IMG/VR virus record: IMGVR_UViG_2925939204_000003
Location: 1 to 32,291 of that record
DNA from: a virus
Lineage: Duplodnaviria > Heunggongvirae > Uroviricota > Caudoviricetes
Length of the DNA: 32,291 nt
Strand: one strand, 5' to 3'
Under the pieces are notes generated by a model. It did no database searches. It was not told where the DNA came from and was given only the letters and a program-made list of their open reading frames with translations. Of this stretch, positions 2,321 through 32,291 are shown one piece after another (the first letter of the stretch is position 1; the number at the start of each line of letters is the position of its first letter). The position numbers and the translations under genes are program-made.

Positions 2321-4762
2321 TTAAAAATCAGCCTGACTCGGGATCAGTTTTTGCCAGATAGCTGAAACGTATTTTGCCTGGTAACGAGCGTCATCAAGTG
2401 CATTATGGCGCTCACCTTCGAATGGAATAGCCGTTCTGGCATCGAAGTCTATGGCTTTCCCCAGCTCAACGATTGTGCGTACATCGCGATCGTTGTAGTA
2501 ACGCCACGGGCAGGTGATCCCCTGCCGTTCGTATGAACGGCGCAAAATCGTGTTGTCGAAGTTGGCTCCATTTCCCCAGACCTGAACAAAAAATTCACCG
2601 GAGTTTTCGTCGATAAATTCCCGCAATTGTAACAGTGCATCATCTAACGGGATTTCATCGGTCATAATGGCAGATTGCGCTTCGCGTGATTGCTTAAGCC
2701 ACCATTTAATGGTGTCCCGATCAATGACTCCGCCAGCAGTTTCCAGATCGATAGTCTTACTAAATTCCGGTCCCACATCTCCGGTTTGCGGATCGAAAAA
2801 TATTGCACCTATTGAGATGATCGGGGCATCAGGATTTTTTCCCATGGTTTCAAGGTCGATCATTAGATGGTCACACGTCCTGCTGGTGGATGTGATTTCT
2901 TGATGACCGTTCACCTTAATTGAGTGATCTGCCGTCTCGCCAGTTTCATTATCGCTATCGTGATGCTGATTGCCGCCAGTGTTCTCCTTGTGTGGATGTT
3001 CAGAGCCTTCCATTTTCTCCGGATCATTTTCCTGAACTTCAACCTGATTCTCTTCATCGAATGTTTCCTGGTATGTTGCGTCGCCCATCACCGCGCCACA
3101 ATCAGGGCAGTTGCCGCCACCGCTCTGACCGCAGGCGGTGCTGACTTTTTCCGGTTCCTGTTGCGCTACTGGTTCGGATTGTTTCGTTTCTGGCTCGTTT
3201 TGTAACGCATTTGGGCTGTTTTGTTCCGCTTTTTGGTCGTTCCGTTCCGATTCATGCTGGTTCTGGTTCACAGAATCGCGAGTCTGGATCCCCTTGACCC
3301 ATTTCGGATCATTAGGGTCGCTAATCCCCTCAACAAATTCACCACGCGATACAGCAAGTAACTTATCGGCGTCAGGCTGGCTGATATTGGCTGTCTGCAT
3401 AATTTTGTTTACTTCGTCAGCGGTGACTTTTACTTGGTTAGCGGAACTCACCTGCGACTGAGCATCCAGCGACTGCGCGTTCTGGCCATGTTCAGTTGTA
3501 TCCGGTTCCATTGTTTCAGTTGTTGCCTGTTCACCTGCCATTGCGTCAGATGGTTGTGGTTTTTCTTCTTCTGTTTCACGCTCAGTAACCACCTCGCGGT
3601 TAATTTCTTCCAGGATATCTTTTTCCGGCGTATGCCGGGCAGCTGTGAGAGTTTCCTTGCTGGGGTTCTCGTGATCAGTTTCCGTCAAATAGGCGTTGAT
3701 ATACCCCTGAAGGCGTCCCGGGTAGTGATAAAATTCAGGGTGTGCGCTTCGGATAAGTGCAAAAATAGCGGCGCGGGAATAGTCCAGAATACCCGGGGTT
3801 GCACGAAGTGCTGCGGACCATTCTTTGAACGGACTTTCTTTGTTCAGGACTACTTCTTTTGCGCGACGATAAACGCTGCCCGGAATTTCATAAATATTAA
3901 AATCCATCGGAAGTGTGGCTGCTGCAATCTCCACATCCAGTGTGTCGAGGGTGTGTACTAAATTCGGATTGCGATCGGTTTTGTTCCCACCGCCAGCATT
4001 AGCACCGGAAGCCGTGCGGGTGATGCGTGAAACACGATTTCCTTTCATCCACTCTTTTGTCAGCAGACCCCGATCAGTGTAGTCAGCGTCCAGGTATGCT
4101 TCGAAAAAAGCAGTTATTAGTCCCAGGTCTGAATTACCAGGATTAGGGAAAACTTTGTCAGTGTCACGAACCAGTTTGTGGAGGTCGCGAATCTCCAGCG
4201 AGTCGAGCAGACTGGTTTTATGCGAAATAGCCAGGGCAGTAACAGCCGGTAGTTCTTCAGCCCGTGCAATGTGTAATGCCTGGAGTTCGTCGCGTGAAAC
4301 GTGCGTTACTGGTTTTTCGCTGCCGTGTTGAGCAAGCCAACGAATGGGCAGTTCCTGACCGGAGACAGGCAGAAGCATGCTCTCCTCAATCTCAGTCATG
4401 TCTTCGCCGTTGATGTTGGTATTGTCAGTGCTGGCTGGTTTGTCCTGAACAGAGGGGGAAGGGCCGATAAATGTCATTGTGATGCCATCTTTCCCGCCTT
4501 TTTCATAGCGGTTGCAGAATTCAGTATCAAACACGCCTTCTGGCGGAAGGTCGTCAACAACGGGCAAATTGACGCGGACGGGTTTTTTAAAGTCGTCTTC
4601 ATCATAATCGTTGTCATCCATTGCGGTAATGCAGCGGGAGATTGCAACAGATAATTTTTTTGCTGTAGTCCAGTAAAAACCACCTTTAATTCCCAGGCGT
4701 TTTCTTACTTTGTCATTTTTTGCTTCGCAATATAGTGCAAATTCTTCTTTATCAGTGCTCAT
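2321..4762 (-). CDS. Large early-operon protein with C-terminal DEDDh-type 3'-5' exonuclease domain (position of the Qin ydfE/exonuclease gene)
   Basis: 813 aa; C-terminal [19 protein letters not shown] and [13 protein letters not shown] resemble DnaQ-like exo motifs I-III; N-terminal two-thirds acidic/Q-rich, low complexity; SD GAGGT upstream. Confidence 0.6.
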
Positions 4763-4855
4763 TATTGGTAAACCTCATCACAGATTTAAGGGTGAACAAA
4801 TCTCTGCCATTGCTGACATATAAGAATGAAACTGGATATTTATTACGGTGCTGTT

Positions 4856-5047
4856 TTAAAATCCTGCCGGGATTTCGTTATTATCCTGGTGAATAACTTT
4901 ATCGACCGGATAACAGTTGCCTGGAATTTTCTGTTCGGTTGCTGCTGCCATACATTCCTGCTTTGTTCTGTGAACACTGACTGCAATATCAACTGGCTCT
5001 CCGGAAACAAGAAAAACCGTCAGAATAAGTGCAAATACTGGATTCAT
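4856..5047 (-). CDS. ydfD: YdfD-like small membrane protein (63 aa)
   Basis: Internal start MNPVFALILTVFLVSG with hydrophobic N-terminus; start overlaps dicB stop (ATGA); matches Qin operon order. Confidence 0.55.
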   Translation of the reverse strand: MNPVFALILTVFLVSGEPVDIAVSVHRTKQECMAAATEQKIPGNCYPVDKVIHQDNNEIPAGF

Positions 5048-5232
5048 TGTGCACATCCTTTTGGCATCAGACGTAAACGGGCCAGCATTGAAACAATGCA
5101 TACTTTATTTAATAACTCCCGTTCGTGTTTTCTTTTGTTAATGGCATCTTCAGTAAATACAGGATTACTGATAGTGACACCAATTTCAAAACAACCTTCA
5201 GACGTATTAACGTTTGGTAATAACGTTTTCAT
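5044..5232 (-). CDS. dicB: Cell division inhibitor DicB (62 aa)
   Basis: MKTLLPNVNTSEGCFEIGVTISNPVFTEDAINKRKHERELLNKVCIVSMLARLRLMPKGCAQ matches recalled DicB nearly residue for residue. Confidence 0.75.
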   Translation of the reverse strand: MKTLLPNVNTSEGCFEIGVTISNPVFTEDAINKRKHERELLNKVCIVSMLARLRLMPKGCAQ

Positions 5233-5401
5233 TATCGCGCCCTCAACAATGAGTTTTGTGATGCGGTGCCTGGTGCCTCCAGGTGACGTTAACCAGTTAA
5301 CAATTAACGCCGGATACAGAGAATCCACCCATAACACTGTTTTTGGTTTTAACTGTTCCGCGTGCGCTTAGCCGCATTCACCGCATCACAAAATTCACTT
5401 T

Positions 5402-5459
5402 AAAAAGGGCGGCAGAGCAGTCACGGAGTAAAACTGATACCGCCAAACGTCACCAGAAA
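5402..5459 (-). ncRNA. dicF: DicF small RNA (53 nt, 5407..5459) plus 3' U-tract of its intrinsic terminator
   Basis: Reverse complement reads UUUCUGGUGACGUUUGGCGGUAUCAGUUUUACUCCGUGACUGCUCUGCCGCCC then UUUUU; lies between ydfC and dicB as in Qin. Confidence 0.8.
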
Positions 5460-5799
5460 ATTGATAACAGAGGGCGTTGCAGCGGGGTTGTCACTTAAGC
5501 GTATGGTCAACCTGACAACCCGGTGTCCTCAACGGGGAAGGAATAACCCCGCCATACTTACCGCCGCGCCATTTCGCGGAGTGCCACAACCGGAAGCGCA
5601 CGGTCGACGAAAATTTAACGACAGGCTATCTATGAACCAGCTACCTCGCCGTGCGCTTTCGCGTTATGGTCTGACTTTTCAGGGAAATATCCTTTCAGTA
5701 AACTGTCAGTGCCGGATGCTCACCCGTGTCCGGCGCACGCACTCCACCTCACCCGTGGAGAACTCCTTAATTACCAACCTTAGCTTCGTTGGTTAGCTA

Positions 5800-6018
5800 T
5801 TAACGCGGGTATGTAATCATTCTGGCAATGCTTAATGCCGCTGCTTTTTCCAGATTGGTGATATCCTGCTCCAGAGCGGACAGATTTTCAGCCTGCTTAG
5901 CCCTGGCTTCATTAGCCCATTTCAGATCCTGCGCTGCATTAATTTTCTGGCGCATCCACTCATAAAGTTCATCATCGGTATAGTCTGGCGCGATTATGAC
6001 GGGTTCTCGTTTCTGCAT
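5800..6018 (-). CDS. ydfC: YdfC-like protein (72 aa)
   Basis: 72 aa ORF at the expected position upstream of DicF. Confidence 0.6.
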   Translation of the reverse strand: MQKREPVIIAPDYTDDELYEWMRQKINAAQDLKWANEARAKQAENLSALEQDITNLEKAAALSIARMITYPR

Positions 6019-9191: not shown

Positions 9192-9617
9192 GTGGCAAAA
9201 GTTTTTACACAAGAAGAGCGGGAAAAAATTAAAGGGCAGGTTGTTGAACTCGTACGCCGGAGTGGGCGCGAGACGTTACGGCAACTGGAAGCCAAGACAG
9301 GTGCGACAAGATATCTGATGAGCGTTCTTGCCAGAGAGCTGGTTGCCAGTGGCGATGTATACAACTCTGGTTACGGGTTATTCCCGTCTGAACAGGCGCG
9401 TAAGGACTGGCAAAATGCCCGCAAAAAACTCTCAAGGGCAAAGGTGAAGAAACCTGCAGTGGTTGATCCGGACCTTATCTGGTCGTTACCAGACGGCGAA
9501 ATACGCCGCTACGACAGGCGCCTGAATATAATCTGTCGCGAGTGCCGGAAGAGCGAAGCTATGCAGCGTGTACTGGCATTTTATCAAGGAAATGTTAGGT
9601 ATTTTAGACGTTACTAG
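9192..9617 (+). CDS. Hypothetical protein
   Basis: 141 aa ORF, GTG start with strong SD AGGAGG; no family recognised. Confidence 0.45.
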   Translation: MAKVFTQEEREKIKGQVVELVRRSGRETLRQLEAKTGATRYLMSVLARELVASGDVYNSGYGLFPSEQARKDWQNARKKLSRAKVKKPAVVDPDLIWSLPDGEIRRYDRRLNIICRECRKSEAMQRVLAFYQGNVRYFRRY

Positions 9618-9770
9618 ATTAAAGAGCATTAGTTCAGATGTGAATTGACATTTTCATGGCGCAGGGTAGAGCCAGCGTGGTTGTCCGCTTTGCGTCAAAA
9701 CCAGATATTACCAGATTTAGACATATATTCCCGATAGCCCTGCTCTGATGCTACACTCTGTGCTATTTTC

Positions 9771-10457
9771 ATGACCCCAATAAAAATATTTATGACTATT
9801 GCTGATTTCAAACGGCCTAAATTGGAGCTCCCAAACGGGGCAAACAAACTACTACTGCACTCTTGCTGTGCTCCATGTTCCGGTGAAGTGATGGAGGCGC
9901 TTCAGGCCTCGGGAATCGACTACACCATCTTTTTCTACAACCCGAACATTCATCCTCAGAAAGAGTATTTAATTCGTAAGGATGAAAATATTCGCTTTGC
10001 TGAACAACACGGCGTGCCGTTTATCGATGCTGATTACGACACCGACAACTGGTTTGAACGTGCCAAAGGAATGGAATGGGAGCCTGAGAGGGGGATCCGT
10101 TGTACCATGTGTTTTGACATGCGTTTTGAGCGGACAGCGTTGTACGCTGCTGAAAATGGTTTCAGTGTGATCAGCAGTTCACTGGGCATTTCACGCTGGA
10201 AAAATATGCAGCAGGTTAACGAGTGTGGGCGGCGAGCTGTTGCGCATTATCCGGGTATGGTGTACTGGGATTATAACTGGCGCAAGCAGGGCGGCTCGTC
10301 CCGTATGATTGAAATCAGCAAGCGCGAAAAATTCTATCAGCAGGAATATTGTGGCTGTGTGTATTCTCTGCGCGATACCAATCTACACCGCAAATCTCAG
10401 GGACGCCCTCTTATCAAAATTGGCCAACTCCACTACGGAAAAGAAGAGAAGGAGTGA
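9771..10457 (+). CDS. DUF208 family protein, epoxyqueuosine reductase QueH-like
   Basis: Motifs [44 protein letters not shown] match recalled QueH Cys pattern; start may be the second Met (9792). Confidence 0.6.
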
Positions 10458-10584
10458 TTTTATGGATCACCTTTCTGATTGATTTCATATTGGCGAGGTG
10501 ACGTGAGTTAAGTAGAATGGCTGCGGGTGCTTGAGGCTATCTGTCTCAGGCATGAACACTGAAAGGCAGATAGAGAAAAGCCCC

Positions 10585-10646
10585 AGTTAACATTACGCGT
10601 CCGGCAAGACGCTTAACATTAATCTGAGGCTCAATCTATGAACGGC
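10585..10646 (-). ncRNA. Predicted Sok-like antisense RNA of the hok locus
   Basis: Minus-strand promoter -35 TTGCCT (10676..10681) and -10 TAACCT (10653..10658) at 17-bp spacing, placed as in plasmid R1 hok/sok; extent of RNA approximate. Confidence 0.3.
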
Positions 10647-10694
10647 AAATCTAGGTTAGCCTCTTACGTGCCGAAAGGCAAGGAGAAGCAGGCT

Positions 10695-10850
10695 ATGAAG
10701 CAGCAAAAGGCGATGTTAATCGCCCTGATCGTCATCTGTTTAACCGTCATTGTGACGGCACTGGTAACGAGGAAAGACCTCTGCGAGGTACGAATCCGAA
10801 CCGGCCAGACGGAGGTCACTGTCTTCACAGCTTACGAACCTGAGGAGTAA
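10695..10850 (+). CDS. hok: Hok-family type I toxin (51 aa)
   Basis: MKQQKAMLIALIVICLTVIVTALVTRKDLCEVRIRTGQTEVTVFTAYEPEE matches Hok (HokD/RelF-like); SD AAGGAGAAG; conserved upstream leader motif TAGCCTCTTAC. Confidence 0.75.
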   Translation: MKQQKAMLIALIVICLTVIVTALVTRKDLCEVRIRTGQTEVTVFTAYEPEE

Positions 10851-10993: not shown

Positions 10994-11386
10994 ATGAAGA
11001 AACTTGTTTTAGTCGCAGGTGTAATGATTGCAACAGTAATGTTGGGAGGGTGTGCAGCAAAGGTCGATCCAGCGTTGAAAGCAGAAGCAATGAAGCCACT
11101 AACATGTAATGATGAAAAGCAATGTGACTTTTATTGGAAACGAGCGCAATTCTGGTTGGCTAATAATTCCTCATGGAAAATTCAAACGGCGACAGACACG
11201 CTAATTTCCACTTATAATCCCTCTCCAAATAGTCCATTCCTCGCTTATCAGGTGAGTAAAATGCCAAATGAAGATGGATCCTCAAGAATTTTCATCAAGC
11301 CTTTTTGCGATAATATGTTTGGCTGTCAACCAAACCCCTATCAGGCAGTTGTTTCCTTTAAAAACTTCGTTAAAACAGGGCAGTAG
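10994..11386 (+). CDS. Putative lipoprotein, unknown function (cargo gene)
   Basis: Signal peptide with lipobox MLGG-C; AT-rich relative to neighbours. Confidence 0.6.
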   Translation: MKKLVLVAGVMIATVMLGGCAAKVDPALKAEAMKPLTCNDEKQCDFYWKRAQFWLANNSSWKIQTATDTLISTYNPSPNSPFLAYQVSKMPNEDGSSRIFIKPFCDNMFGCQPNPYQAVVSFKNFVKTGQ

Positions 11387-14264: not shown

Positions 14265-14340
14265 GGCCCTTTAGCTCAGTGGTGAGAGCGAGCGACTCAT
14301 AATCGCCAGGTCGCTGGTTCAAATCCAGCAAGGGCCACCA
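14265..14340 (+). tRNA. tRNA-Ile2 (anticodon CAU, lysidine type; ileX/ileZ-like)
   Basis: Clean cloverleaf; anticodon loop CUCAUAA; close to recalled E. coli ileX sequence. Confidence 0.8.
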
Positions 14341-14341
14341 G

Positions 14342-14418
14342 CCGCCACTAGCTCATCAGGAAAGAGCGTCAACCCTTTAAGTTGAGTGTGCGAGGTTCGA
14401 GTCCCCGGTGGCGGTCCA
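14342..14418 (+). tRNA. tRNA-like gene, anticodon ambiguous (loop CCUUUAA, nominal UUU); possibly degenerate
   Basis: Acceptor, D and anticodon stems pair; position 33 is C not U; one A-C mismatch in T-stem. Confidence 0.45.
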
Positions 14419-14420
14419 GT

Positions 14421-14496
<76 letters not shown>

Positions 14497-14499
14497 TAT

Positions 14500-14574
<75 letters not shown>

Positions 14575-16632: not shown

Positions 16633-17118
16633 TTATTTTGTGGTTTTGAAAAGTTTCATGTACTGATTGATAGGTTTTCCTGAGTAAGAATCTGTCCCTG
16701 GCTCAGGAGTATCAGATAAAACTTTTGCAGCTAATTTGTTGGAGGCTTGATTACCAACCCCGACAATAGCCTCTACATAGAATTCATTGAAGGAATTTCT
16801 AAATCCGTATTGCATTTCTTCAATGCTGGCGATGAGAAGTTGAGTACCGATGCCTTGCGCTTTATATTCATCGGCTACTGCATAGCCAACGCCAAAGCAT
16901 GGTTTACCTTCAACAAACTCTGCAGGGACATATATAGCAACACCTTTAACATTTTCTCCTTCAAAGAATGCATAAGTAAACCGTGGCGTACCCTCTGCAT
17001 CATCCAAAAGCACCTTCATATTTGGGTGAACTATGCATGGTGAAGGCTTAATCAGACCATTAGAAAAGGCGTATTGAAAACTAATTAATGAGTCTGTTGG
17101 ATCAACGAGTTCTGGCAT
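16633..17118 (-). CDS. GNAT family N-acetyltransferase (cargo gene, opposite strand)
   Basis: 161 aa; acetyl-CoA binding motif AQGIGTQLL; AT-rich; flanked by AT-rich intergenic DNA. Confidence 0.6.
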   Translation of the reverse strand: MPELVDPTDSLISFQYAFSNGLIKPSPCIVHPNMKVLLDDAEGTPRFTYAFFEGENVKGVAIYVPAEFVEGKPCFGVGYAVADEYKAQGIGTQLLIASIEEMQYGFRNSFNEFYVEAIVGVGNQASNKLAAKVLSDTPEPGTDSYSGKPINQYMKLFKTTK

Positions 17119-31710: not shown

Positions 31711-32291
31711 TGGCATTCAGAATGAGTGAACAAGCACGGACCATAAAAATTTATAACCTGCTGGCCGGAACTAATGAATTTATTGGTGAAGGTGACGCAT
31801 ATATTCCGCCTCATACAGGTCTGCCTGCAAACAGTACCGATATTGCACCGCCAGATATTCCGGCAGGCTTCGTGGCTGTTTTCAACAGTGATGAGGCATC
31901 GTGGCATCTCGTTGAAGACCATCGTGGTAAAACGGTCTATGACGTGGCTTCCGGCGACGCGTTATTTATTTCTGAACTCGGCTCATTACCGGAAAATGTC
32001 ACCTGGTTATCCCCGGAAGGGGAGTTTCAGAAGTGGAACGGCACAGCCTGGGTGAAAGATGCAGAAGCAGAAAAACTGTTCCGGATCCGGGAGGCGGAAG
32101 AAACAAAAAACAGCCTGATGCAGGTAGCCAGCGAGCATATTGCGCCGCTTCAGGATGCTGCAGATCTGGAAATTGCAACGGAGGAAGAAACCTCATTGCT
32201 GGAAGCCTGGAAAAAGTATCGGGTGTTGCTGAACCGTGTTAATACAACAACTGCACCGGATATTGAATGGCCAGTAGCACCTATAGGGTAA
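31710..32291 (+). CDS. tfa: Tail fibre assembly protein Tfa
   Basis: [37 protein letters not shown] matches recalled lambda Tfa; start overlaps stf stop (TAATG). Confidence 0.85.

Follow-up and report, generated by a model that had tools for sequence, protein, structure and literature searches.

A queH gene in the cargo region of Escherichia coli lambdoid prophages: a probable route to cobalamin-independent queuosine formation

Queuosine (Q) is made in Escherichia coli by way of FolE, QueDECF, Tgt and QueA, and it is confined to the tRNAs with GUN anticodons, namely those for Asn, Asp, His and Tyr (PMC9508795). The pathway ends with the conversion of epoxyqueuosine (oQ) to Q, and the E. coli enzyme for this step, QueG, is cobalamin-dependent (PMC4646009; PMC11841063). 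QueH is the recognized cobamide-independent alternative (PMC6461909): it is a functional analogue of QueG, with the same reaction in the same pathway (PMC4646009) but an unrelated fold and cofactor. The oQ/Q step can be dynamic during infection, since phage infection of Shewanella induces queG, by which oQ is shifted to Q (bioRxiv 10.64898/2026.03.05.709803). Phages also carry genes from the queuosine/archaeosine pathway, but the products of these, FolE, QueC/D/E and DpdA, make preQ0-type bases for the modification of phage DNA, and Hutinet et al. in 2019 reported no homologues of QueA, QueG or QueH from the viruses that they analysed (PMC6884629). A literature search for prophage- or phage-borne QueH yielded no paper on the subject, and no experiment on the prophage copy described below.

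The window that we have analysed (the whole stretch of 32,291 nucleotides) is a lambdoid prophage lying beside mtfA and integrated at a tRNA-Ser(CGA) gene. Among its genes is one for a QueH-like protein; compared with the phages that make 7-deazaguanine bases, this prophage carries only the last, tRNA-specific step of the pathway, and no DNA-modification partners are annotated in it. The identification as such is already known: the DNA of this region is identical to RefSeq sequence whose product, WP_000150294.1, is called 'epoxyqueuosine reductase QueH', the same name is used in UniRef, and the family has solved structures. Judging from sequence comparisons and a predicted structure, the gene very probably encodes a bona fide QueH, an accessory function of lambdoid prophages that would remove the need for B12 at the end of Q synthesis.

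The first-pass annotation placed the gene at 9771..10457 on the + strand, and an ORF of 228 aa does run from an ATG to a stop codon between these positions. All four of the Cys-rich motifs that had been quoted for its product are also found, at residues 27-37, 54-62 (FFYNPNIHP), 110-115 (RCTMCF) and 193-196 (YCGC). While the stop codon and the motifs stand, the start does not: it is the second ATG, at 9792, that is conserved as the start, and the true CDS is most likely 9792..10457, with 221 aa. We prefer this start because it is the one used by RefSeq for WP_000150294.1 (221 aa, same coordinates), because the N-termini of close homologues line up with the Met at 9792 and lack the seven-codon extension, because strain TUM14759, whose allele is divergent, has ATT instead of the first ATG and, after it, a TAA in the same frame, and because the seven codons 5' of 9792 are poorly conserved when six prophage alleles are aligned. 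The elements of the gene are the following, with residues in the numbering of the 228-aa reading.

9771..9791, + strand: seven in-frame codons before 9792, where the gene had earlier been started; probably untranslated (allele alignment, homologues).
9792..10457, + strand: queH CDS (epoxyqueuosine reductase QueH, PF02677), 221 aa plus stop (Pfam, PDB 7lc5, RefSeq, AF2 model).
9858..9878, + strand: codons for H-S-C-C-A-P-C, including Cys32, Cys33 and Cys36, a putative N-terminal metal-site motif aligned to H7, C9, C10 and D13 of Thermotoga maritima QueH.
10101..10112, + strand: codons for C-T-M-C (Cys111, Cys114), a pair aligned to the CxxC of T. maritima QueH.
10350..10358, + strand: codons for C-G-C (Cys194, Cys196), conserved in the family and in T. 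maritima.

The DUF208 membership claimed for the product is borne out by a profile search against Pfam, in which PF02677 (QueH) is matched over its whole length (profile positions 1-174 of 175) with E=1.1e-65 and a score of 221.5 bits versus a cut-off of 23.5, much more than chance could produce. PF02677, or IPR003828, is the QueH family, formerly DUF208. When the sequence is compared with the PDB, the T. maritima QueH chains 7lc5, 9dco and 9d86 are matched at E ~1e-21 (7.8e-22 for 7lc5) over residues 27-203, with 31-34% identity. The seven cysteines that hardly vary in the family (C32, C33, C36, C111, C114, C194 and C196) are all kept. Conservation was assessed with 150 diverse representatives, one per 50%-identity cluster, aligned to the query: Cys111 is a cysteine in 139 of the aligned representatives and Cys114 in 135, while Cys194 and Cys196 are kept in 85-86 of the ~87 representatives whose sequences extend over them. 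At position 36, 117/121 representatives have Cys and 4/121 have Asp, with Asp13 of T. maritima among these four. Cys32 and Cys36 align to C9 and D13 of T. maritima, and two deposited QueH structures are mutants at these residues (9D86 is C9S, 9DCO is D13N); the roles suggested here for individual residues as metal ligands derive from conservation and from the names of such mutant entries in the PDB.

The predicted structure points in the same direction. With 42 sequences as input, AlphaFold2 gives a model with a mean pLDDT of 77.7 and a pTM of 0.80, whose moderate confidence reflects the shallow alignment. In a Foldseek search of the PDB its top five matches are the QueH entries 7lc5, 7lc7, 9d86, 9deu and 9dco, at probability 1.00; the best of them, 7LC5, is superimposed with a TM score of 0.79 by target and 0.65 by query (rmsd 3.2 Å over 179 columns), and the matches that come next, TtuA and LarE-type PP-loop proteins, are far weaker. 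The prophage protein thus resembles T. maritima QueH (7LC5, 7LC7, 9DEU) in family, predicted fold and the CC...CxxC...CxC pattern. It differs in the low level of identity given above, in the presence of Cys36, the residue of the family majority, in place of Asp13, and at its two ends, where, as in proteobacterial QueH, it has a short N-terminal extension and a tail of ~25 aa that is basic at the C-terminus. Overall the assignment to QueH is supported by sequence and model. No NCBIfam model (no equivalog) matches the protein; in PHROGs it falls in phrog_3217, labelled 'unknown function', whose profile begins at residue 41 and so omits the CCAPC motif.

The closest relatives at the species level are the QueH proteins of E. 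albertii (100% identity), Scandinavium (92%), Kluyvera (91%) and Enterobacter (88-90%), followed by those of Erwinia (about 86%), Providencia (about 84%) and many other Enterobacterales. Identity is still 75-81% with the proteins of Pseudomonas, Stenotrophomonas, Sphingomonas and Neisseriaceae, and we conclude that this QueH subfamily evolves very slowly. A few related records have odd titles (Bacillus subtilis SK7B5, an 'Avacidaminococcus' MAG), a sign of contamination or transfer. The queH genes of Providencia, Erwinia, Photorhabdus, Enterobacter and Scandinavium are surrounded by ordinary chromosomal genes and not by phage DNA, for example purL and two-component genes in Erwinia, tmcA in Providencia, and icd/rluE in Enterobacter. 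The chromosomal QueH of the Enterobacterales is therefore a near-identical protein, of the same length and with all the invariant residues, found in housekeeping surroundings wherever these were examined, whereas the gene of the window occupies a prophage cargo slot. Most likely the prophage queH goes back to a chromosomal copy in a different member of the Enterobacteriaceae. The sequences that precede the chromosomal orthologues show no alignment with the DNA 5' of the prophage gene, and no co-captured promoter was found in this comparison.

Among six prophage and phage alleles dN/dS ranges from 0.04 to 0.09 with dS up to 0.45; relative to three chromosomal orthologues (Erwinia, Providencia, Photorhabdus) synonymous sites are saturated. 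By this measure the protein is under strong purifying selection, and the combination of large dS with small dN/dS indicates a long residence in the lambdoid gene pool under such selection, which counts both against a decaying passenger and against a changed function.

The distribution of the gene is also informative. All but one of 5426 complete E. coli genomes (5425) have a chromosomal queG, in agreement with the earlier remark that E. coli normally uses QueG, so QueH adds to QueG and does not replace it. A queH CDS is found in 994 of the 5426 genomes (984 at >=80% coverage), intact and nearly always in single copy, and on every E. coli record listed it is annotated as a normal CDS, 'epoxyqueuosine reductase QueH'. 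Since the present prophage (>=80% of its first 25 kb) occurs in only 187 genomes, queH must be spread over several different prophages. The 90%-identity cluster of the protein has 2308 members, named QueH in E. coli, Shigella, Enterobacter and Klebsiella, and at least 191 viral contigs in IMG/VR encode a relative. Only one isolated phage is known to us to have the gene at >=90% identity, Escherichia phage HannyBb, the sole such record among 50,697 phage records; its product, encoded at 5001-5687 of the locus examined, has 95% aa identity and is annotated as 'hypothetical protein'.

The description of the locus as prophage cargo holds well, as queH lies between conserved phage modules. From the left, the genes are the integrase, an exonuclease, dicB/DicF, the repressor/cro pair, YdaT, a replication gene and the DUF977 gene, after which comes queH; to its right are hok/sok, a lipoprotein ORF, DUF968, rusA, Q, four tRNAs, and the lysis, terminase, head and tail genes. 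Around queH, this agrees with the context that the first-pass annotation had given. The features nearest to the argument are listed here.

9192..9617, + strand: DUF977 gene, which keeps its place to the left of queH from one lambdoid prophage to another (Pfam PF06163, E=1.6e-28).
10525..10850, + strand: hok/sok type I toxin-antitoxin, the right neighbour here and variable in other prophages (Rfam sok, 111.9 bits, at 10525-10700; Pfam HOK_GEF, E=2.4e-22).
14265..14574, + strand: four phage tRNAs with anticodons CAU, UUU, UGU and UCC (ARAGORN, Rfam tRNA).

The lipoprotein ORF between hok and the DUF968 gene (10994-11386, 130 aa) has a lipoprotein signal with an LGGC lipobox (…MLGGC…) and no match in Pfam or PADLOC. 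The tRNA cluster (Ile/Met-Lys-Thr-Gly) directly follows the Q antiterminator gene. Its first member, at 14265-14340, is Met(CAT) according to ARAGORN and tRNA-Ile according to RefSeq; presumably it is a lysidine-modified tRNA of the Ile2 type. The cluster does lie downstream of queH, as had been noted, but a functional link between the two was rejected: none of the four anticodons is GUN, and since Q is found only in tRNAs with such anticodons, the phage tRNAs are not substrates of QueH.

In the prophages that we compared, queH always follows the DUF977 gene, while the replication modules and the right neighbours differ; on the right side there can be hokD, a KwaB-like gene pair, an NgoMIV-type restriction-modification system or a DUF1971 gene. 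In many lambdoid phages similarity to the window sets in only at the first base past the queH stop codon, and in phage mEp460 an unrelated, uncharacterised reverse-strand gene occupies the same place. These observations define a variable cargo slot. The gene is dispensable: of phages that are otherwise related, some have it and others fill the slot with different cargo. The region just to the right of DUF977/queH looks like a hot spot for cargo or defence genes, of which three occupants can be given as examples.

3875-5514 of the locus in another lambdoid prophage: KwaB-like pair, after DUF977/queH.
3851-5861 of the locus in another lambdoid prophage: NgoMIV restriction endonuclease and cytosine methyltransferase, after DUF977/queH.
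1642-2991 of the mEp460 locus, - strand: gene for a 449-aa protein, after DUF977.

As a QueH, the product of this cargo of the early-right, nin-like region in prophages of E. coli and its relatives would be a [4Fe-4S]-plus-iron enzyme that forms Q34 by reduction of the epoxide in oQ34, its substrates being the tRNAs for Asn, Asp, His and Tyr with oQ at position 34; we infer the binding of the cluster and of iron, the oQ-to-Q activity, the timing of expression and the beneficiary. To our knowledge E. coli cannot synthesize cobalamin de novo. Because the QueG that nearly all E. coli strains possess needs this cofactor, a QueH would make Q formation B12-independent and free the last step of the pathway from an external supply of the vitamin, in the lysogen, during growth of the phage, or in both.

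Who gains from this is less clear than what the enzyme probably does, and the benefit of Q over oQ to a carrier is conjectural. Tentatively, we suggest that queH could be a lysogenic-conversion gene, by which queuosine-tRNA maturation in the lysogen is made independent of the supply of cobalamin; in a bolder variant of this idea, the state of the anticodon set by QueH would alter susceptibility to tRNA-targeting toxins or defence nucleases. Somewhat doubtful, though worth serious consideration, is the alternative that queH serves the phage and not the lysogen: it would be transcribed only in the lytic phase, from the early rightward promoter, and would quickly turn the oQ-tRNA of the host into Q-tRNA, either to adjust how phage genes are translated or to oppose a response of the host. 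The enzyme would be unchanged, and only the beneficiary and the timing would differ.

Expression bears directly on this choice. The gene is on the same strand as, and lies within, the early operon that extends from the replication genes to Q, and consensus scans for sigma-70 promoters and for terminators call none for queH; unless it has a promoter of its own, its transcription would be that of the early rightward operon, as expected if it serves the phage. The scan does report a + strand match at 10490-10518, just 5' of hok/sok, which may be the promoter of the latter. One upstream element deserves mention.

9741..9757, + strand: candidate promoter, an upstream block common to all prophage alleles, CTCTGATGCTACACT, with an extended -10-like TGcTACACT at 9749-9757.

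This block, which can also be written CTCTGATGCTACAC(T), is the sole upstream stretch still common to the most divergent allele (in TUM14759 its last base is A). It was not called by the consensus promoter scan, and from its sequence we regard it as a candidate promoter for queH and nothing more. There is no preQ1, cobalamin or other riboswitch 5' of the gene in Rfam searches of the whole window at gathering thresholds or of 9560-9860 at E<=1, and folding of the 183-nt upstream region reveals no notable structure (z=-1.1).

The presence of queH in the free-living phage HannyBb and the response of the oQ/Q ratio to infection in Shewanella (bioRxiv 10.64898/2026.03.05.709803) would also fit a gene that acts on behalf of the phage. 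On the other hand, at >=90% identity the gene is rare in sequenced virions (1/50,697 records) and common in prophages, and most related lambdoid phages are without it and have other cargo in the slot. Codon usage offers no encouragement either: the NAU fraction of NAU/NAC codons is 0.55-0.61 in the prophage genes that were scored, which are mostly early and nin-region genes with a few from the lysis region, the 12 genes from HNH/terminase on (head, tail) having been left out because the window and the reference locus are out of register after ~17570. Such values are unremarkable relative to E. coli averages, and thus the scored genes have no special reason for needing Q.

A second alternative concerns the enzyme itself. 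The first-pass annotation had asked whether this is a true QueH or a repurposed Fe-S enzyme, that is, a protein of QueH fold whose target would not be oQ-tRNA but, for example, a modified base in DNA, or an anticodon whose modification changes the sensitivity to tRNA-cleaving toxins or defence nucleases. The neighbourhood lends some color to this idea, as an NgoMIV-type restriction-modification system or a KwaB-like protein sits directly 3' of queH in other prophages, hok/sok is in the region, and the slot in mEp460 holds the uncharacterised reverse-strand gene. However, QueH has no match in PADLOC, nor have the five neighbouring proteins that were searched with it, and none of the partners used in 7-deazaguanine DNA modification (DpdA, Tgt, QueC/D/E) is annotated in the prophage. 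The protein retains every family-invariant residue and 78-92% identity to the housekeeping, chromosomal QueH of other Proteobacteria, and its dN/dS is as low as that expected for an unchanged function. The conserved cysteines, this identity, a dN/dS of ~0.05 and the existing names in RefSeq and UniRef lead us to lean strongly to a true QueH, and to consider a new target highly unlikely.

Least probable of all is that queH is a neutral passenger, brought in by illegitimate recombination and spread by the spread of prophages alone with no selected function in E. coli, as its redundancy with queG (5425/5426 genomes) and its position in a mosaic, often exchanged region might suggest: strong purifying selection (dN/dS 0.04-0.09 over dS up to 0.45), a frame intact in ~984 genomes and a normal CDS in every record examined all argue to the contrary.

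With queH regarded as a genuine epoxyqueuosine reductase gene, the finding is, in our view, correct and ordinary in kind, of modest weight, and provides a natural handle on the oQ-versus-Q question. A phage vehicle would be spreading a B12-independent isozyme through a species whose core enzyme needs B12, a situation that parallels the MetE/MetH pair. Since selection is strong despite the apparent redundancy, the queH+ and queH- lysogens that occur in nature are a simple means of studying whether Q functions differently from oQ. If the gene does act in lysogenic conversion, its upkeep alongside QueG in ~18% of E. coli would imply a real effect on fitness of having Q instead of oQ where B12 is limiting, for instance in the gut or in the course of an infection. 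Phage resources miss queH at present: PHROG 3217 is of 'unknown function', the HannyBb protein is 'hypothetical', and the 2019 survey reported none in its viruses.

A few observations concern the rest of the prophage. In the left arm, the DicF antisense RNA is recognized by Rfam at 5407-5458 on the - strand, adjoining dicB, and the integrase ORF (1034-2059, 341 aa) is open in the window and annotated as frameshifted in the reference strain EBJ003. The loss of register between the window and EBJ003 after ~17570, from the HNH/terminase region on, points to an indel. Between the lysis genes and terminase there is a gene for a GNAT acetyltransferase (~16633-17118, - strand), likely another moron, and near the right end of the window Rfam reports a full-length match to the RNA family 'IS009' at 32053-32251 on the + strand.
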